In this document: positions 43,797-55,415 of the stretch, piece by piece | Numbering within the stretch: the first letter of the stretch is position 1 | Layout: the number at the start of each line of letters is the position of its first letter | NCBI GenBank assembly: GCA_963667175.2 | Contig: CAXXXF010000006.1 | Coordinates: 608,001 to 672,000, forward strand | DNA length: 64,000 bases | DNA from: Candidatus Latescibacterota bacterium | GTDB lineage: Bacteria; Latescibacterota; UBA2968; GCA-2709665 | Direction: 5' to 3' | Notes under the pieces: generated by a model | What the model saw: the letters and a program-made list of their open reading frames with translations, nothing else | Databases searched by the model: none | Told to the model about the DNA's origin: nothing | Program-made: the position numbers and the translations under genes

Positions 43797-46700
43797 TCAA
43801 AGCAACAGCCTCTTCCATTTCTCCGCCTCCGCATCCTCCATTTCGGCTTCCATGTTGTAGATTCGGGCAATCTGCTCCAATAGGCCTGCGACATAGGGGT
43901 ATACATCCACAAGTTCGTCTGCCCATTCGCCGTAACGCTTGGCCAAGTCCCGCTCCTGATCACCGTTTCCTTTCGTGTAAACGCCGCGACGATTCAACGC
44001 ACCTTCAATAAATGCTTGGCCGACATCCTCCAAAGACATCAATTCTAAGGCTTCGCAAACCGGTCGGCACGGCCAGACTCCACTCGCTTCTGGAGCGTGA
44101 GCCAACAAAGCGCCAATCTTACGCTCGCAGATCTTGGAAAGATCATGACGGTCACACCATGAGCGAAGCTTGTCAAGCCAAGCCTTCAAGTAGTCTGCAT
44201 CTATTTTACCGTTCTTGTCGGTACCAGGAATGTAGCGGATTCGGTTGAGAAGCCAATGAGCCCGCCGTGCGATTCCCAATTGTTGTTCACGGTTGTCCGA
44301 CCAAAATCCGGGCGGGTCCTCCCCGCCATCCGCACGTTCGTAAACGCATGCGATTACTCTCGCGAAGAGTTCAGGCGACGCGGCGATGTGCTTTTCGATA
44401 TTCGGAATGCCATGTTTCGTCCTGTCGAGACGCACAAGGTGGAGGTACTCAAGCTGGGCTTTTTCCTCTACGGTCACCCCAGACCGTCTGTCGAGTTCAT
44501 CAAACGCGGTTGAAAGATGATGGTTGTCAATCATTGGATCATCTCGAGAATCATCCGAAAATGCGGCAGGCAAGAAATAAAGTAGCCGTTTCAGTATTGA
44601 TGTCTCTACATGGTTCCACGCCACATACGCTGCACGAAATGCTGCGTTGGGACGACCCACTCCAAGCAGTCTATCCACAGATTCGTTGATTTCTTCAGCA
44701 GGGGAATCTTTCCACGTTCGCGGTTTGATTTTTTTCCAGTATGCATCCCGAACGTCTGGCGGTTTGTCGTCGAGCCTTCGCCATGTCGATGCTGCGAACG
44801 GCATACACAGGAGCAACGTGGCGAAGTGGTCCGGCTTCTTCAGGTTTTCAGTTCGGGAAATCTGCTCGTCGAGCAGGCCAGAGTCAGTCTTTCTCATAAA
44901 TCCGGCCAGGCAGGAACTTAGCGCCATTGAATTTTCGCTCGTCGCCGCTTGAAGACACGACTGAAAGAACTCGTCTGCATCGTGACGATCTGCCAGGATC
45001 CCCGCTATCAGTTCGCCGATCAAATCCGACGTGGTTTCATTTCCCCTGAGTAACCCAACTACGCCCTGGAAACCACGCTCCTCCCATATCTCACGTAACG
45101 CCTCTATCCGCAATTCGTTGAGCCGTCGCTCGTCTTCATCTCCGCACTCACTGTCATCGGCTTCCCGTGGCGGTAGTTCGACCCAATGTGTTGTGAATAG
45201 CCACCCATGGCGCAAGATGGAATCGCCTGGCAGCAGTATCTTAAGTACTTCGCGTTCCTTTTCTGGATGCGCAATTGACTCTTCCCGTACGTGTCGCATA
45301 CGTGCGGACGAATGGACACGCTGGCGCAGACTCGCCTTCTCATCGTCTGAGGGCTTCGAATTTGCCCAATTCGCGATGTGTTCCCATATCCTGAGTTGCT
45401 GCCGTTCATTAAATCGTCCAAGCCGCTCAACGAGGTCGCCCAGGTTGGCTTCATCGCGCACGTCACAATCCAAGAGCGATTTGGCACATTCGTGTATAAA
45501 CCTACGCTGTTCGGTCGTGGGAACCTCTATTACCGTCTTTACGCCGTCGTCCCGCCACCGTGGGCGGCGATTGGGGACCGCAATTTCGCACCCATCCAAT
45601 TCGCCGATACGTACAAACCAACCCAGAGACGGGTGGCGCCGGGAGAGAGCTTCCAAGGCTTTCAATCTTATATCAAGTGTGGCGGCGGTTTGTGGCATCC
45701 AGGAACGGAAAAATGACGCCAGCGTATCCCTGGGGCTGGGCGACCAGTTATCATCACTTTCGATTGCCGACATCTCACACAGCTTCGCTAAAAGCTCGAC
45801 GACACGTGGAAATCGTTTCGGGTTCCACGCAAGTACTTGCAGCGTCCATAGCAAGGGAGTCCTGAGCGAATGACTTAAGAAACTATGTCGCGGTATTTTC
45901 ATGAGTTCGCATATGACGGGATTGGGCTTCCGAACATCTGTCTCGATCAACGAAAGTATGACCTCGGGTGCTGCTTCCGCAAAATCAGGAAGGGCTATGC
46001 CGTATGACGTAATCTGGTCCTGTTCGAAAGGGCTTAGGAGCTTCTTGACGAAGGACGCCACTTCGGATTCAGCGTCGAAACCCATGCGCTTATGAAATAG
46101 ACGATTTCCGAAGACTGCCAGGAGTATGAGCGTCTCGCGAATTCCTCTTCGCAGTGCGTCGGAATGACTTGGCGCGTTTTCGAGAGGTTTCGCCGACAGT
46201 TCGTATTCTGGTGTCGAATTAGTGGAAGTCTCGTCTTTGCACAGGACGTCAATTGCAACCGCAAGAAAGTTATCCAGGTCAGTCCTGGTTACGAACGGAG
46301 AAATTCCGAACAGGGCATCAATCCTTGATACAACCCCCTGATGATCTCCTGCTGACCAGAGCGGCGGATCCTCAAGATCAAGCAGTTGCGCCAAGTCAAC
46401 CTCAACTCTGGCATAGTCGTCCTGGCTCCAGAGACGCTGAACTACCTCGCGGTCGCCAGGGGCCGCTGAGTTCCAGGCGCCTACCATTGCAGCCGGTATG
46501 AGTTTCCGGCCGATTTCAGCATCCACGGCCCAGCATGGCGTCTGCACTTCAGGTAATTTGGAAAGGCGACGCCGCAGGATCGTCAGCGAACAAGCGGATT
46601 CCCGAGCCAGCCTCTCGATCTTCTCGTAAGCATACCCGCTCGACTCAAGAGCTTTGTGAAAATCAAGAAAGTGCAGACGATCCAGTTCGATATCGGGGTC

Positions 46701-47885
46701 GCCGTAGACGCTGTTGCGAGGCCGTATAATCACCCGGCGGCAACGGCGCCGCAGGAAACCGATTCTCCGTTCGACCTCCGGCGTGGTTGCGATGGCGATA
46801 ATCGGTAATCTGTCCACGCTTTTCAATCGTTCCAGTGCGTTCGGCGTGTCAAACACTATCATCTGATGATCTAATCCGGGGATTCCAATCTTGGCGGAAC
46901 CCGCTAGACACCGCAGAAAAGCGAGCGCTTCATCCCGTGAATCAGCCGCAACAATTAGAGGACGATCGAGTTCCTCGTTGTGCCAATCTACAAATGGCTT
47001 CGCGAATCGACTGACGGTCGGCGCGATGAGGGCTGGCCATATTGGTGGTTCGCAGTCTTCGATCCATTCGCACCAGCATTGTTCGATCGATCGAAAGCCG
47101 TCGACCCGTCGGCTGAGACGTTCAGCGAACCAGATCTGAACCGCAGCGGATTGCTCGATCCATTGCTCCAGGTCACTCGCGTCGTATACCCTGACGTCCT
47201 TCCAATGGCCAGCGGCGGTTTTTTCCTTTGCCCAGTCTTGCTTCTGCTTCCAATCTCGCGCAGTCACAAAGACAAACGTCGTGTCATGCCGTTCCTTGGG
47301 TTGCACTGCTTTCAAGCTCTTCACATAGTCGATCTCGGCTTTACCCCTAATATCTCGTCTGCAACTGAGTTCCCATCCTGATTTTCCTGCCGGTATCCAG
47401 GGGGTAGGCACTGAGGTCTCAATTATGCCGTCCCACCCTTTACGTTCCGCATTGTCATAAGCAGGGAAATCTACACGTGTAAGATCCTGTCCGGTCGTGT
47501 GAACGAGCCTGCGCACTAATGCCGGGAGTTCCCGGCGGGCGCAGTTCCTCTGAGCCCATTTATGAATTTCAATTGCCCTGATTGGTGCCAGATGCGGAGC
47601 GTAAAGGCCGGCAGTAATGGACCCTACGTCCACATCGTCCTCGCTCTTGTCGAACTGAAATTGACGCTCCATCAGCATATCACGGTCCGCACCAAAGGTC
47701 CGCTCAAGCCGCATCGCCATCTCCGGCGAAAGATCCGCATTACCGTTCAGGAAATTTGAAAGCGCCGGGCGCCCGACGCCAAGGAGCTTTGCCGCCTTTG
47801 TGACAGTCATACGTTCGGGAATGACGTGACGCCTGACGTAAGCTCCAGGATGATTCCTATCATTTTTCCCATAATTCTGAGCCAT
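43797..47885 (-). CDS. 1362-aa protein: HigA-type HTH + putative nuclease-like domain + degenerate NTPase + helical repeats
   Basis: HPG.Y.R..V...MTVT.AA..LGV.R.ALS..LNG...LS.EMA.RL; GWDG...WELS; GGAGG RBS. Confidence 0.8.
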   Translation of the reverse strand: MAQNYGKNDRNHPGAYVRRHVIPERMTVTKAAKLLGVGRPALSNFLNGNADLSPEMAMRLERTFGADRDMLMERQFQFDKSEDDVDVGSITAGLYAPHLAPIRAIEIHKWAQRNCARRELPALVRRLVHTTGQDLTRVDFPAYDNAERKGWDGIIETSVPTPWIPAGKSGWELSCRRDIRGKAEIDYVKSLKAVQPKERHDTTFVFVTARDWKQKQDWAKEKTAAGHWKDVRVYDASDLEQWIEQSAAVQIWFAERLSRRVDGFRSIEQCWCEWIEDCEPPIWPALIAPTVSRFAKPFVDWHNEELDRPLIVAADSRDEALAFLRCLAGSAKIGIPGLDHQMIVFDTPNALERLKSVDRLPIIAIATTPEVERRIGFLRRRCRRVIIRPRNSVYGDPDIELDRLHFLDFHKALESSGYAYEKIERLARESACSLTILRRRLSKLPEVQTPCWAVDAEIGRKLIPAAMVGAWNSAAPGDREVVQRLWSQDDYARVEVDLAQLLDLEDPPLWSAGDHQGVVSRIDALFGISPFVTRTDLDNFLAVAIDVLCKDETSTNSTPEYELSAKPLENAPSHSDALRRGIRETLILLAVFGNRLFHKRMGFDAESEVASFVKKLLSPFEQDQITSYGIALPDFAEAAPEVILSLIETDVRKPNPVICELMKIPRHSFLSHSLRTPLLWTLQVLAWNPKRFPRVVELLAKLCEMSAIESDDNWSPSPRDTLASFFRSWMPQTAATLDIRLKALEALSRRHPSLGWFVRIGELDGCEIAVPNRRPRWRDDGVKTVIEVPTTEQRRFIHECAKSLLDCDVRDEANLGDLVERLGRFNERQQLRIWEHIANWANSKPSDDEKASLRQRVHSSARMRHVREESIAHPEKEREVLKILLPGDSILRHGWLFTTHWVELPPREADDSECGDEDERRLNELRIEALREIWEERGFQGVVGLLRGNETTSDLIGELIAGILADRHDADEFFQSCLQAATSENSMALSSCLAGFMRKTDSGLLDEQISRTENLKKPDHFATLLLCMPFAASTWRRLDDKPPDVRDAYWKKIKPRTWKDSPAEEINESVDRLLGVGRPNAAFRAAYVAWNHVETSILKRLLYFLPAAFSDDSRDDPMIDNHHLSTAFDELDRRSGVTVEEKAQLEYLHLVRLDRTKHGIPNIEKHIAASPELFARVIACVYERADGGEDPPGFWSDNREQQLGIARRAHWLLNRIRYIPGTDKNGKIDADYLKAWLDKLRSWCDRHDLSKICERKIGALLAHAPEASGVWPCRPVCEALELMSLEDVGQAFIEGALNRRGVYTKGNGDQERDLAKRYGEWADELVDVYPYVAGLLEQIARIYNMEAEMEDAEAEKWKRLLL

Positions 47886-49878: not shown

Positions 49879-49890
49879 TATTCTCCCTAA

Positions 49891-51592
49891 GGCGGCTTCG
49901 CTTTGCTCAGCCGCAACCAAAAAGGTGGTAGTCAAGAGCAGTTTGTTTTGTGGTATGAAAAACGGCGTTCGTCCTTTATGATGGTGGTCCCAACCGCCAT
50001 CAACCCAAGGAGGAACGCCGTGAACGACTTCGTGGACCAATATAATGAAAAAATCAGTGGCGTGGTATCGTGTTTTGATCGGGTTTTGTTCAAGGGGTAC
50101 CTGCCGCTGGGATTTGGCAATGCGATGGAGCGTTTCATGGGTAATCAGGGTTTTTTGTTGAAGGACTTCAAGCGTTTTGTGACGTCGCATTCCAAAACGA
50201 TCAAAGCCCACGCGGAGGCGGTGGCGAGCAGGCACAAGCGCCCGTTCCTCTATCTCGACCGCAACACCGTCAGGAAAGAGGAGGAAGCGCGACGCATCGC
50301 CCAACGAGATGGGATCACCCGCGGCCTGGTCTGTGTGTTCCGCGCCGTGGAAGGCTGTCAGAGTTTCAAGCTGGTTCCAGGGGAAGGAAGGCCTCGCCTG
50401 CTCAACGCCCGGCGGAAGTGCCTGTGCTACTACTTCTACTATATCGACCGTGAGTTCGGGTTGCTGCATATCCGCATCCAGTCCTGGTTCCCCCTGGTGG
50501 TGCAGGTCTGTCTCAATGGCCACGAATACCTGGCGCGCAAGCTCGATAAAAACGGCATTGCCTATGAAAAAGCAGACAACGCGTTTCTATGGATCGACGA
50601 CGTGGCCCGGGCGCAACGCTTTGCCGATCGTTTTGTCGAGAAGAATTGGCCGCGCATTCTCTCCGGGCTTGCCCGCAGGGTCAACCCCCTGCTCAAAGAC
50701 CTGCTTTCGGGAATGGACTATTACTGGGTCGTTGACCAGGCTGAGTTCGCCACCGACGTGATGTTCACAAGCCCCCACGCCCTGAAGGTGCTGTATGAAA
50801 ATCTGCTCAGACATACGGTGCTGTGCTTCTCCCCCCAGGACATCCTGACCTTCCTGGGACGCAAACTCCACGGCAACTTTCAGGGCGAAGTCCTCACGGA
50901 CTTCAAAAACAAACGCCAACCCGGCGCACGGGTCAAACACCGGATGTGTGAGAACTGGATAAAAATGTACGACAAACACGGGCGCGTACTACGCATAGAG
51001 ACAGTGATCAACCATCCAAGGCAGTTCAAGGTCCGCCGCTGGGGCATACGCCAAGGACAACGCGTGATGGGCTGGTATCCCATGGCCAAAGGCGTGGCCA
51101 ACCTCTACCGCTATCGGGAAATCTCATTGAAGGCCAACCAACACTACCTTCATGCGCTGGCAGCAGCACCAGACACCGCGAAGAGCCGTCACAGCCTCAC
51201 CACACTTGCCCGACCACGCAGGCACAGGGGGCGTACCTATCGGGGCTTCAATCCCGCCGACACCCGCGACCTCGACCTCTTCACCGCCGTCCTGAAAGGC
51301 GAACACGCCCTGATGGGCTTCCGCAATCGGGACATCCGAAAACACCTCTTCAAACAACCCAGAACCCTCGACCAGCGCCGACGGCAGGCCAACGCCGTCA
51401 GCCGACTTCTCAAACGCCTACACGTCCGAGGCCTGATCGCCAAAATCCCACGGTCCAGAAGATGGCGCGTCACACAGGCCGGACACGTCACACTCGCGAC
51501 TTCACTGACACTATACCACAAGCACACAAACCCTATCCAAGCAGCATGAACAAACTTCTACGCATCTTGCGTTGAAGTCTTACTGTAAGACT
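49891..51592 (+). mobile_element. putative transposable element with hairpin ends and a single Rep_trans-like gene
   Basis: Left hairpin GCGGCT..AGCCGC-AACCAAA; right palindrome AGTCTTAC-T-GTAAGACT; opposite strand to the surrounding array. Confidence 0.6.
50020..51549 (+). CDS. putative transposase: Rep_trans/CRI-like catalytic core + C-terminal wHTH
   Basis: AAGGAGG RBS; QAEFATD, IKMYDK and LRIET motifs; C-terminal FRNRDIR...RLLKRLHVRGLIAKI...WRVT..G. Confidence 0.7.
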   Translation: MNDFVDQYNEKISGVVSCFDRVLFKGYLPLGFGNAMERFMGNQGFLLKDFKRFVTSHSKTIKAHAEAVASRHKRPFLYLDRNTVRKEEEARRIAQRDGITRGLVCVFRAVEGCQSFKLVPGEGRPRLLNARRKCLCYYFYYIDREFGLLHIRIQSWFPLVVQVCLNGHEYLARKLDKNGIAYEKADNAFLWIDDVARAQRFADRFVEKNWPRILSGLARRVNPLLKDLLSGMDYYWVVDQAEFATDVMFTSPHALKVLYENLLRHTVLCFSPQDILTFLGRKLHGNFQGEVLTDFKNKRQPGARVKHRMCENWIKMYDKHGRVLRIETVINHPRQFKVRRWGIRQGQRVMGWYPMAKGVANLYRYREISLKANQHYLHALAAAPDTAKSRHSLTTLARPRRHRGRTYRGFNPADTRDLDLFTAVLKGEHALMGFRNRDIRKHLFKQPRTLDQRRRQANAVSRLLKRLHVRGLIAKIPRSRRWRVTQAGHVTLATSLTLYHKHTNPIQAA

Positions 51593-51596
51593 CTAA

Positions 51597-51775
51597 CAGT
51601 CCGTTGAAAAAGTCGCTCTGCAGGCGAGGCCAAGTCATTGAGGCCGAAGAGAAGGCGCGCGACCGACTCGAATCCTCGGACTCGGTGAGGGAGCGCCTGC
51701 CTGCTGCAGGCAGGCAACGGCGTAGTTCGGTCACAAGGGCCGGACCCAGCCCGGATTGACTTGTCCAACGGGCTG
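51597..51775. mobile_element. MITE with IS5/IS1182-like terminal inverted repeats
   Basis: CAGTCCGTTGAAAAAGTC versus GACTTGTCCAACGGGCTG (15/18 complementary); non-coding. Confidence 0.7.
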
Positions 51776-51816
51776 CCAAGGCTGTTCCGGGGGTTCCTCC
51801 GACCTGGACAGGCGGG

Positions 51817-53898: not shown

Positions 53899-54372
53899 AT
53901 GCGGTCAAGAACCGATGTTGGAGACAACGGCAGCAGCAGCAAGGGGTCTCTGGTTGTGGAGGTCCCGCGCGGGACCTCCACAACCACGAAGCCGGATCCG
54001 GAAGTGCCGGCGCGTGCGCAGCGTCGCCGTTTCACGGCAAAGTACAAGCTTCGCATCCTGGAAGCGGCGGATGCTTGTCGCGCTCCTGGTGAAGTCGGCG
54101 CGCTGCTGCGCCGCGAGGGACTGTATTCCTCGCAGTTGACGCAGTGGCGTCGTGCGCGTCGCGAGGGGTCGCTCAAGGCGCTGTCGAAGCTGCGGGGACC
54201 GAAAGGGCGTCGCCGCGACGAGGTGGCCGTCGAGAACGAGCAACTGCGCAAGGAGATCGCCCGTTTGCGACGACGATTGGAACAGGCGAACACGATCCTC
54301 GAGATCCAAAAAAAAGCCTCCGAGATCCTGGGCATCCCCCTGAACCCGCCAGCAGGCGACGACGACGTATGA
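53899..54372 (+). CDS. IS3 OrfA
   Basis: Near-identical to the copy 1 OrfA. Confidence 0.9.
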   Translation: MRSRTDVGDNGSSSKGSLVVEVPRGTSTTTKPDPEVPARAQRRRFTAKYKLRILEAADACRAPGEVGALLRREGLYSSQLTQWRRARREGSLKALSKLRGPKGRRRDEVAVENEQLRKEIARLRRRLEQANTILEIQKKASEILGIPLNPPAGDDDV

Positions 54373-55415
54373 TCCGTGCCTGCCTGCGCCGAGCCCCGCG
54401 CGGCAGGCAGGCGGCAGAACAACTGGCCCCGAAGGTCGGGTTGGCTTCCGCGTGCCGGGCGCTGGGTGTGGCGCGGGCATCGGTCTACCGTGCGCGTCAG
54501 CCAGCCCAACGCGGGCCTCGTGGCGCCCGGTCCTCGTCGCCACGTGCGCTTTCCCAAAACGAGCGCGCTACCGTGCTGGACATCCTGCACGAGGACCGCT
54601 TCGTAGACCAGGCGCCACCGGCAGTCTACGCCGCGTTGCTCGAGGAAGGGCGGTATGTCTGCTCGATCCGGACCATGTACCGTCTGCTGCACGATGCAGG
54701 AGAGGTGCCCCAGCGGCGACACCAGCGGCGTCATCCACGTCTGGAACCGCCCCGCTTGATGGCGGATGCGCCCAACCAGGTCTGGACATGGGATATCACG
54801 CGGCTGCCAGGAACCCGCAAGTGGGAAACCTATCCCCTCTACGTCGTACTGGATCTGTTCTCACGCTATGTCGTGGCCTGGATGGTCGCCACAAGGGAGA
54901 GCGCCACATACGCCAAGCGCCTGATCACCAACGCCTGCACCAAGCAGGGCATTCAACCCCGACAACTGACGCTGCACCAGGACCGCGGCGCACCCATGAC
55001 GGCCAAGACCTTTTCGCAGTTGCTGATGGACCTCGACATCCTGGCCAGCTACTCTCGACCCCGTGTGTCCGATGACAACCCGTATTCCGAAAGCCAATTC
55101 AAGACGCTCAAATACGCGCCTTCATACCCCGGGCGCTTCACCAACCCGCAAGAAGCACGCACCTATTTACAGGCCTTCTTTCCCTGGTACAACACACAAC
55201 ACCGGCACAGCGGACTGGGCTTACTCACGCCCGACACCGTCCACCATGGGCTGACACAGCAGTTTCAAGCCGCCAGACAATCGGTGCTGGACCAGGCCTA
55301 TCACAACCACCCTGAACGATTTGTTAAGGGGCATCCTCGTCCACCACGCGTTCCAGACCAAGTCTGGATTAACCAACCACAGAACACCATCGAATGCCAT
55401 CAGTTGCTTCACTAA
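54369..55415 (+). CDS. IS3 OrfB DDE transposase with an 11-aa in-frame insertion
   Basis: Same DDE motifs as copy 1; MIR-ACLRRAPRGRQ-AAEQ versus MIR-AAEQ. Confidence 0.92.
   Translation: MIRACLRRAPRGRQAAEQLAPKVGLASACRALGVARASVYRARQPAQRGPRGARSSSPRALSQNERATVLDILHEDRFVDQAPPAVYAALLEEGRYVCSIRTMYRLLHDAGEVPQRRHQRRHPRLEPPRLMADAPNQVWTWDITRLPGTRKWETYPLYVVLDLFSRYVVAWMVATRESATYAKRLITNACTKQGIQPRQLTLHQDRGAPMTAKTFSQLLMDLDILASYSRPRVSDDNPYSESQFKTLKYAPSYPGRFTNPQEARTYLQAFFPWYNTQHRHSGLGLLTPDTVHHGLTQQFQAARQSVLDQAYHNHPERFVKGHPRPPRVPDQVWINQPQNTIECHQLLH
54378..54412. repeat. 35-bp palindromic micro-element (GCCTGCCTGC...GCAGGCAGGC)
   Basis: Absent from IS copy 1; relatives at 60085-60119 and 51695-51715. Confidence 0.85.

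Follow-up and report, generated by a model that had tools for sequence, protein, structure and literature searches.

The 64,000-nucleotide stretch of a Candidatus Latescibacterota genome analysed here (the window; contig CAXXXF010000006.1, positions 608,001 to 672,000 of the forward strand) carries at 49887-51596 one copy of a mobile unit of about 1.7 kb, which is a real, active-looking insertion sequence (IS) of an undescribed family. Its sole gene is a plus-strand open reading frame (ORF) for a 509-aa protein. From its sequence and modelled structure we read this protein as a transposase, namely a tyrosine nickase resembling the Rep_trans replication initiators of plasmids such as pT181, and we put the probability that the new family is driven by such an enzyme at roughly 60%. 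This is the best supported account of the enzyme, and it combines a weak fold match with a striking correspondence of motifs. Most likely the protein comprises a two-lobed catalytic domain of the Rep_trans kind, with the topology of the TATA-binding protein (TBP), and a C-terminal winged-helix DNA-binding region, both as predicted from the model.

Mobility was established by comparing copies. The home genome (G000, 5.52 Mb) holds 12 copies, full or partial, six at 100%, five at 97% and one at 91% identity, and all copies read, including the six identical and the 97% ones, start and end at the same bases between unrelated flanks, an agreement of boundaries far beyond chance. The relative G007 adds at least nine copies at 87% identity and the sister genome G009 one copy at 91%. 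Nine full copies from G000, nine from G007 and the one from G009 could be read at both ends, and all 19 are chromosomal and have distinct flanks. At the site orthologous to an insertion on contig C15 of the home genome, G009 has a single CTAA and no element, its flanks being identical at 79/80 positions, and three further relatives have CGAA at the same site, again with the element absent. Non-autonomous derivatives of about 240 bp consist of some 45 bp from the left end, an unrelated GC-rich core and some 67 bp from the right end; twelve of these (L017-L028) were fetched from six relatives (G002, G005, G006, G008, G012 and G013), and the home genome itself has at least six left/right end pairs lying 210-290 bp apart. 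It is because the unit is multi-copy, has an empty site and has given rise to derivatives made of its ends alone that we call it an IS-like mobile element. An earlier examination of the letters alone (the sequence-only reading) had proposed collecting copies for their ends and empty sites and searching for non-autonomous ends, and both proposals proved productive. Its description of the gene, the ends and the palindrome agrees with the sequence, including a single gene running against its minus-strand neighbours and the lack of terminal inverted repeats: compared in inverted orientation, the left and right ends have nothing in common.

Two observations on these copies stand apart. A GC-rich palindromic core (…CACTCCCCCCTTGAGGGGGAGTCGC…) is common to the miniature derivatives and has no relation to the full element; some of the derivatives carry extra inserts. 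Contig C15 has at 527095-530190 a head-to-tail fusion of two 97% copies. A rolling-circle origin was considered for this pair and rejected: position ~1410 of one is joined to position ~33 of the next across 4 bases of microhomology, which has the look of a deletion between neighbours.

The junctions of the 19 full copies define how the element sits in its target. The right tetranucleotide is CTAA in every copy (51593-51596 in the window), whereas the left one, CTAA at 49887-49890 in the window, is CTAG in 7/19, namely in six of the nine G007 copies and in the G009 copy. Within G007 the left fourth base tracks the sub-lineages, being G in four identical copies and in one pair, and A in the sister pair and in a singleton; a base inherited in this way with its sub-lineage therefore moves with the element. 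With unequal tetranucleotides in 7/19 and inheritance of the base at which they differ, a simple 4-bp target duplication of the IS5 type was rejected for the CTAA pair. Among 54 distant relatives the base after the terminal CTA varies (A in 30, T in 13, C in 8, G in 3) while the right CTA is constant, and the 4-mer NTAR precedes the left hairpin unit in 37 of 48 loci, a set gathered by regular expression that includes a few doubtful long-loop hits. The sequence-only reading had placed CTAA outside both ends. CTAA does stand at both junctions, but the element carries base 49890 and the right CTA (51593-51595) along with it, and only the left CTA and the final A are derived from the target. The simplest reading is a target of the form ...YTA^N... 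(the caret marking the cut) and an element of the form R...CTA, with the same kind of cut at the left junction, at the right terminus and in the target; such a geometry would regenerate CTAR at the junction of a circle and would restore the donor.

Junctions of the latter sort may be present in metagenomes. At locus L222 a right end abuts a left end through a single CTAA, and locus L213 has a similar junction, either of which might belong to a circle or to tandem copies; the left end that follows in L213 is unlike that locus's own left end, so its contig is not a simple circle. As a separate observation, locus L195 has at 1822-1950 its right-end module (hairpin and ...AAGAATCTA) tandemly duplicated directly after the first copy, which could be the product of read-through at termination.

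The ends are conserved across the family, as judged from 80 metagenome loci whose proteins are 43-63% identical to the window protein. The left end has throughout the layout YTAR, one base, a GC hairpin and AACCAAA. A perfect hairpin of at least 5 bp that ends exactly at the AAC anchor was found in 38 of the 47 loci having that anchor and sufficient upstream sequence, against 1/47 random-position controls. Stem variants keep their pairing (GCGGGC/GCCCGC four times, GTGGCC/GGCCAC, CCGGCC/GGCCGG and CCGGC/GCCGG) and the loops vary freely, and AACC follows the hairpin directly in nearly all loci listed. The window copy of this hairpin has a DNA folding energy of -9 kcal/mol (z -1.9), and the AACCAAA box beside it may be a protein-binding or guide element. 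The right end runs, family-wide, through a hairpin, GAAGTnAC, a few bases and AAGAnTCTA; in the 45 loci found with a strict pattern the terminus reads AAGACTCTA in 17 and AAGAATCTA in 7, and an alignment of 56 right ends has A43, G44, C48, T49 and A50 as columns conserved to 90% or more.

Evidence for the right helix is of a more graded kind. In the window, the segment 51546-51600 folds as DNA at -11.2 kcal/mol (z -4.3), and 0/200 shuffles folded equally well. On the 56 aligned ends 61.7% of cells are paired against 55.9% after shuffling (0/500), with slid controls at 28-49%, and the covariation score is 0.241 against 0.154 (0/500), all in a fixed register that was taken from the window copy, itself one of the sequences, and so is biased towards the helix. 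Perfect right hairpins occur in 26/54 loci against 14/54 controls, a weak excess and a less regular pattern than that of the left hairpin, and RNAalifold returned no consensus structure for the aligned right ends. The palindrome that the sequence-only reading took for the right boundary is indeed there, but it is particular to the lineage: the distant relatives aligned do not keep it, and only its 3' half (TAAGACT) falls within the conserved terminus. The family-conserved features of the right end are the inner hairpin at 51554-51578 and the terminal ...AAGACTCTA.

Between the left end and the gene lies a leader stem whose second arm directly precedes the start codon. RNAalifold on 40 sequences predicts six pairs here, each with compensatory double changes, in a sample for which 39 of 56 eligible loci were picked by eye, so that the count leans towards structure. 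The stem probably sequesters the ribosome site and the start codon. The gene starts at a GTG, and homologues align from residue 1 of the protein in this form. A group of relatives (L183, L185, L187, L189 and L199) differs in that a conserved stretch, resembling a small opposite-strand ORF upstream of the main gene, replaces the usual short leader; for this sub-family the left end was not found within 330 nt upstream of the ORF.

The protein belongs to a very large family. In the search 3594 matches were found among 8000 candidates scored, and 7408 representatives of 50%-identity clusters matched at E ≤ 1e-3. Members are nearly all about 510 aa long and come from many phyla and many environments, and almost all are annotated as 'hypothetical', the plasmid homologues in Burkholderia, Rhodococcus and Mycobacterium being labelled 'hypothetical' or 'ArsR family regulator'. 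In the phylum its members occur patchily, in 9/168 genomes, as expected of an IS. The 509-aa protein matches no Pfam or NCBIfam transposase model, and NCBIfam yields 0 families at E ≤ 1. Searched by sequence, as a single protein and as a family profile, Pfam, NCBIfam and the PDB give weak winged helix-turn-helix (wHTH) matches only: in the C-terminal region these are, in Pfam, the MksE wHTH (E 0.024), HVO_A0261_N in 31/79 members and HTH_45 in 13/79, and, with the family profile in the PDB, a MarR protein (E 0.026). The nearest clusters in the ESM Atlas are all unnamed, each a 'hypothetical protein', and a search of named clusters with residues 1-359 gave no usable match.

AlphaFold2 returned confident models. 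The whole protein reached a predicted local distance difference test (pLDDT) of 92.3 and a predicted TM-score (pTM) of 0.87, and residues 1-359, modelled by themselves, 93.7 and 0.90. Long antiparallel strands and helices build two pseudo-symmetric lobes (strand-helix-strands), after which comes a helical winged-helix region. When the prediction was compared with the PDB by Foldseek, the only matches at a probability of at least 0.85 were Rep_trans proteins, namely RepSTK1 (4cij_A, E 1.7e-3, probability 0.93) and RepDE/RepDN (4cwe_A, 0.92; 4cwc_A, 0.85), the Rep_trans chains together spanning E 1.7e-3 to 7.6e-3 and TM-scores of 0.22-0.31; TBP came next, at a probability of 0.77 (TMt 0.42). Among the best matches in BFVD were viral TBPs and the Inoviridae protein A0A345MNV4 (probability 0.99), which the accessible text of Wang 2026 (PMC13107129) identifies as a Rep_trans protein. 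No RNase H/DDE, HUH, RuvC-like/DEDD, tyrosine-recombinase or serine-recombinase signal was seen in Pfam, in NCBIfam or among the top 50 Foldseek matches.

We compared the protein with RepC, taken from the pT181 plasmid record, using the residue roles of Carr 2016 and the motif list of Wawrzyniak 2017 as given in the parts of those papers available to us, and scored conservation on an alignment of 79 sequences (30-83% identity). Motif N' (FD46 in RepC) corresponds to FD20 on predicted strand 12-27; motif I (D142-x-A-x-D146) to E242-x-A-x-D246 on predicted strand 235-249; motif III (R189-x-Y191-x-K193, that is R-I-Y191-N-K) to K315-M-Y317-D-K319 on predicted strand 312-319; and motif IV (W-R-x-E214) to L-R325-x-E327 on predicted strand 323-330. 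The order is that of Rep_trans, and each candidate residue stands on a predicted strand of its own, as in the description available from Carr 2016, where all catalytic residues lie on the sheet, on separate strands; the same text has the metal-binding carboxylates of RepC as D46 (motif N'), D142 (motif I) and E214 (motif IV), each on a separate strand, and R189 and K193 as needed for religation. Conservation is high at all of these places: R325 and E327 are present in 79/79 sequences, E242 and Y317 in 78/79, and D246, K315 and K319 in 77/79, D20, E242 and E327 all being invariant or in 78/79; the single sequence without Y317 is locally aberrant. We accordingly name D20, E242, D246, K315, Y317, K319, R325 and E327 as the putative active site, with Y317 (codon 50968-50970) the candidate nucleophile.

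The sequence-only reading had anticipated much of this. The motifs that it picked out, QAEFATD, MYDK and LRIE, are real and conserved and follow the order of the Rep_trans motifs, and the C-terminal wHTH that it proposed is borne out by the weak Pfam matches and the MarR match. Its placing of the element among IS-like units, outside the standard IS families, agrees with the copies, empty site and derivatives and with the lack of DDE, HUH, DEDD, tyrosine- or serine-recombinase signal; neither an RNase H/DDE fold nor a catalogued IS family came to light, and copies and an empty site did. The idea of a nickase like a replication initiator fared less evenly, as Foldseek probabilities of 0.85-0.93 and the motif order speak for it while sequence profiles are blank and the fold match is weak. 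The check that had been suggested, profiles PF02486 and PF05144 together with Foldseek, split likewise: the profiles had no match at E ≤ 10, but the PDB matches of highest probability in Foldseek are Rep_trans proteins.

A number of observations weigh against a Rep_trans-like nickase, and these should be considered together. The fold match is weak, there being no PDB match at E ≤ 1e-3, with TM-scores of 0.18-0.31 and root-mean-square deviations of 11-14 Å, and the similarity could be one of shared TBP-like topology without shared chemistry. By sequence the relation is not detectable. Hidden Markov models for PF02486, PF05144 and PF25227 found 0 matches at E ≤ 10 in the whole genome (a control search with PF25227 was positive in Haloferax), the window protein had no match to PF02486 at E ≤ 1, and with the 79 members at E ≤ 10 none of the three was among the 25 families listed of 61 matched. 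Aligned by hhalign, the family profile scored E 0.2 against RepC and E 0.11 against a 16-sequence profile of the pT181 family, which is narrow (48-100% identity) in that only close relatives of RepC were recovered; neither value is significant, though both runs pair D20 with D46. Motif II (T/S-x-Y/E-x-G) has as sole candidate R299-x-(E)-G302 in the family consensus, a poor fit. In the first lobe E111, Y138 and Y140 are invariant and R152 nearly so (window 50350-50478), on strands pseudo-symmetric to those of the Y317 lobe, and these residues could form a second active centre; as Y138 and Y140 are equally invariant, Y317 need not be the nucleophile, or not the sole one. The presumed nick sites lie beside hairpins and not in a loop as at the pT181 origin. 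Genes like Y1_Tnp (Y1 HUH) are present in G000 (contigs C3 and C7), G007 and G009, away from the ORF, and mobilisation in trans by such genes is conceivable. Ten G007 copies set against the direction of replication, with dnaA taken as the origin, were co-oriented in four cases and anti-oriented in six, which is no bias. Targeting of the lagging strand in the manner of IS608 would predict an orientation bias, and its lack in this small sample speaks against strict lagging-strand targeting. Finally, Logan contigs from sponge and marine metagenomes contained no circular junction, which might be added to this list, but such contigs cannot show absence and the result has no bearing either way on circles or on excision.

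If the protein is the nickase we propose, it would recognise the subterminal hairpins and nick a single strand at two places, behind ...YTA at the left junction and behind ...CTA where the element ends on the right, with the 5' phosphate becoming bound through Y317. A metal ion would be held by D20, E242 and E327, and religation would be helped by K315 and K319. Joining of the element's 3' CTA-OH to its 5' R would then close a single-stranded circle that holds one CTAR junction. The circle might follow on displacement synthesis, a copy-out route like that of pT181 or IS91, or on the excision of a single strand in the way of IS200/IS605. Reversal of the reaction at a target YTA^N would insert the element with no duplication. 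Taken as a whole this would amount to a further mechanistic class of transposon, in which a TBP-fold, Rep_trans-like tyrosine nickase cuts and rejoins single strands at YTA^N under the direction of hairpins, possibly with tyrosines of both lobes (Y138/Y140 and Y317), and we judge the odds of this to be slightly better than even.

A first alternative overlaps with the nickase account but places replication first: the unit would be a minimal rolling-circle replicon or satellite, a free 1.7-kb circle that is replicated, with the chromosomal copies being secondary integrations by the same nickase. It is in keeping with a protein whose nearest structural relatives are replication initiators, with a hairpin and nick sequence beside the gene in the layout of a double-strand origin, with the many homologues on contigs of 1.66-2.3 kb and with the right-end/left-end junctions of L222 and L213. 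However, 19/19 full copies are chromosomal with distinct flanks, short contigs are a product of the collapse of IS repeats, L213 with its differing left ends is not a simple circle, and derivatives of 240 bp scattered through chromosomes fit transposition; the lack of a circle junction in the run contigs, which is uninformative, adds little. We regard a replicon as unlikely.

Slightly less probable again would be a new conservative site-specific recombinase, exchanging both strands at a short CTAR core between a circle and the target as in IS110 or IS607. The same short sequence at both junctions and once in the empty site, the single CTAA of the L222 junction and a strict target, CTAA in all 19 full copies of the genus, are what such an enzyme would leave. 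The protein, however, bears no likeness to DEDD/RuvC, serine-recombinase or tyrosine-recombinase folds or families, the fourth base of the core stays with the element and is not homogenised between junctions, and the hairpins conserve structure and not loop sequence, as would suit an enzyme that recognises DNA in extruded or single-stranded form.

The likeness to Rep_trans might also be topological only, the protein being a transposase with a chemistry of its own, for example hydrolytic cuts by acidic residues with no covalent tyrosine link. Low TM-scores, non-significant profile comparisons and the invariant residues outside the Rep_trans motifs (R21, E111, Y138, Y140, N166 and N187) are compatible with this, but the order of the motifs, the R/K-x-Y-x-K spacing and the placement on strands agree at 4/5 Rep_trans motifs and the ends resemble those of tyrosine-nuclease transposons, which leaves it improbable. 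That the ORF is a passenger, a DNA-binding regulator on an element moved in trans by, e.g., a Y1 HUH transposase, would suit the ArsR-family label of one homologue in RefSeq, the winged helix as the sole part seen by sequence tools, the Y1_Tnp-like genes in G000, G007 and G009 and the IS200/IS605-like end architecture, but is very improbable given that the gene and both ends stay together in relatives down to 43% protein identity and in many environments, that the 359-residue sheet domain has nine invariant residues and five more in 77-78/79, and that the ORF-less derivatives sit in genomes holding full copies or in close relatives of such genomes.

Returning to the Rep_trans-like nickase, its relation to known systems can be described from both the enzyme and the ends. 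The Rep_trans/MOB_T group (PF02486: pT181 RepC, pC221 RepD, RepSTK1; ICEBs1 NicK and Tn916 Orf20) has a curved, two-lobed sheet of TBP topology, to which the model here bears a weak likeness, the candidate residues in the same order (D, D/E-x-A-x-D, R/K-x-Y-x-K, R-x-E), a helical DNA-binding domain after the catalytic domain and a hairpin beside the presumed nick sequence. The seven letters ACTCTAA are found both at the right junction of the element (window 51589-51596) and in the loop of ICRII, the hairpin of the pT181 origin (L033, 4355-4385), which may be coincidence. RepC presumably nicks inside this loop. In contrast to Rep_trans proteins, the present one gives no sequence-level match, has a catalytic domain about 100 residues larger with long helical insertions, and is carried by a chromosomal multi-copy 1.7-kb element with two different ends and not by a plasmid, phage or conjugative element, with the presumed nick beside the hairpin. 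A second relative in fold is Rep-Arvir (DUF7845, PF25227) of archaeal viruses and plasmids. According to the portions available of Wang 2026 (PMC13107129), it has the same architecture of a TBP-like catalytic domain of about 300 residues and then a MarR-like wHTH, its relation to Rep_trans is likewise visible by structure only, and its Foldseek neighbours A0A2N9QVX7 and A0A345MNV4 are those found here. PF25227 nevertheless finds nothing in this genome at E ≤ 10, and in the same portions Rep-Arvir is an archaea-exclusive replication protein with a tyrosine motif, KHYYM, unlike this protein.

In its ends the element resembles other systems. Like IS200/IS605 (Y1 HUH TnpA; IS608, ISDra2), the element has no inverted repeats, no target duplication and different subterminal hairpins, inserts directly 3' of a short specific sequence resembling its own right terminus, has non-autonomous hairpin-ended derivatives and has a leader structure over the ribosome site; unlike them, it encodes a 509-aa protein of TBP-like fold with no HUH or Y1_Tnp (PF01797) match, and its 10 copies show no orientation bias with respect to replication. 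With IS91, ISCR and Helitron (Y2 HUH) it would have in common a short target without duplication, two distinct ends of the 'ori' and 'ter' kinds and a transposase from among the relatives of rolling-circle initiators, and the head-to-tail junctions of L222 and L213 and the duplicated right end of L195 recall read-through products. Invariant tyrosines in both lobes (Y138/Y140 and Y317) would allow a two-tyrosine mechanism as in Y2 HUH enzymes. The protein nonetheless belongs to a different superfamily from that of IS91/ISCR, no Y2 HUH family or fold being among the matches, and no capture of flanking DNA was seen. The DDE families (the ISfinder families covered by NCBIfam) differ in that the element has no RNase H-like fold, inverted repeats or target duplication, and IS110/IS1111 (DEDD) and IS607 in that no RuvC-like or serine-recombinase match was found in Pfam, NCBIfam or folds. 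The anatomy is thus that of a tyrosine-nuclease, single-strand transposon of the IS200/IS605 or IS91 sort with an enzyme of a different superfamily: the element fails the protein tests of these two groups and, while its fold class, motifs and domain order are like those of Rep_trans and Rep-Arvir, it fails their sequence tests.

The known classes of prokaryotic transposase are DDE, DEDD, HUH (Y1 and Y2), tyrosine and serine recombinases and Cas1. Our literature search, which missed most subscription journals, found no description of a Rep_trans-like or TBP-fold transposase, and in the accessible text of the works consulted, including Carr 2016 and Wawrzyniak 2017, Rep_trans enzymes are described in replication and conjugation only and with no role in transposition. 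The present analysis adds the geometry of the junctions, the finding that both ends are conserved throughout the family, the miniature elements, the helix of the leader and the equivalents of R189 and K193. Should the proposed enzyme be confirmed, an abundant cross-phylum IS family with a Rep_trans-like nickase would constitute a new transposase class, and transposition would join the replication of plasmids and phages and the relaxation step of conjugation as a third role of this enzyme superfamily. Rolling-circle initiators would then have been taken up for transposition twice independently, the other case being HUH, which would bear on the interconversion of replicons and transposons. The new class would also assign a function to thousands of proteins now called 'hypothetical' or 'ArsR regulator' and give genome annotators a new IS model with well-defined ends; as the family is very large and absent from Pfam, NCBIfam and annotation, it would account for a sizeable part of the bacterial repeats labelled 'hypothetical'. 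The short YTA^N target, seamless insertion and small hairpin ends would further make it a candidate tool for the insertion of single-stranded DNA.

Table 1. Features of the element copy, in window coordinates
Feature	Position	Strand	Basis or remark
Target-derived CTA, left junction	49887..49889	+	G009 empty site; family 4-mers; target read as YTA^N
Element itself (1706 bp), from R (A here) to CTA	49890..51595	+	Copies with identical ends
Left subterminal GC-rich hairpin, GCGGCT / 11-nt loop / AGCCGC	49892..49914	+	Arms 49892-49897 and 49909-49914
AACCAAA box, directly 3' of left hairpin	49915..49921	+	Conserved
5' leader stem, GGCGTTC (49964-49970) / GAACGCC (50013-50019)	49964..50019	+	Second arm directly before start codon
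Single gene, 509 aa	50020..51549	+	Predicted: residues 1-357 two-lobed TBP-like / Rep_trans-like; ~359-509 helical with winged helix
Right inner hairpin, CTTC-T-ACGCA / loop / TGCGT-T-GAAG	51554..51578	+	DNA fold; family alignment
Terminal palindrome, AGTCTTAC-T-GTAAGACT	51576..51592	+	Present in this genus
Conserved right terminus TAAGACTCTA, putative cleavage after CTA	51586..51595	+	Family alignment
Target-derived base after insertion, N of YTA^N (A here)	51596..51596	+	Empty site; copies; family

The surroundings of this copy hold other elements. A minus-strand ORF has its ATG 8 nt from the copy, which lies upstream of it. Directly to the right of the copy, 51597-51776 is taken up by an unrelated miniature inverted-repeat transposable element (MITE), about 180 bp long, whose terminal inverted repeats read CAGTCCGTTGAAAAAGTC... 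and its complement and which lies between 4-bp NTAN duplications, and the element studied here is inserted exactly on the left duplication of this MITE. A 57-bp repeat on the right flank, considered at one point as part of the element, is the end of the same MITE and was rejected; the home genome has 30 near-full copies of the MITE and 172 blast pieces. Two genes to the left of the element, at 43797-47885 on the minus strand, is a 1362-aa ORF whose N-terminus has a helix-turn-helix like that of HigA-type antitoxins and whose long remainder is uncharacterised. Further to the right, at 53899-55415 on the plus strand, overlapping ORFs of 157 aa and 423 aa are a candidate OrfA/OrfB pair of the IS3 family, with DDE integrase-like sequence as read by eye.

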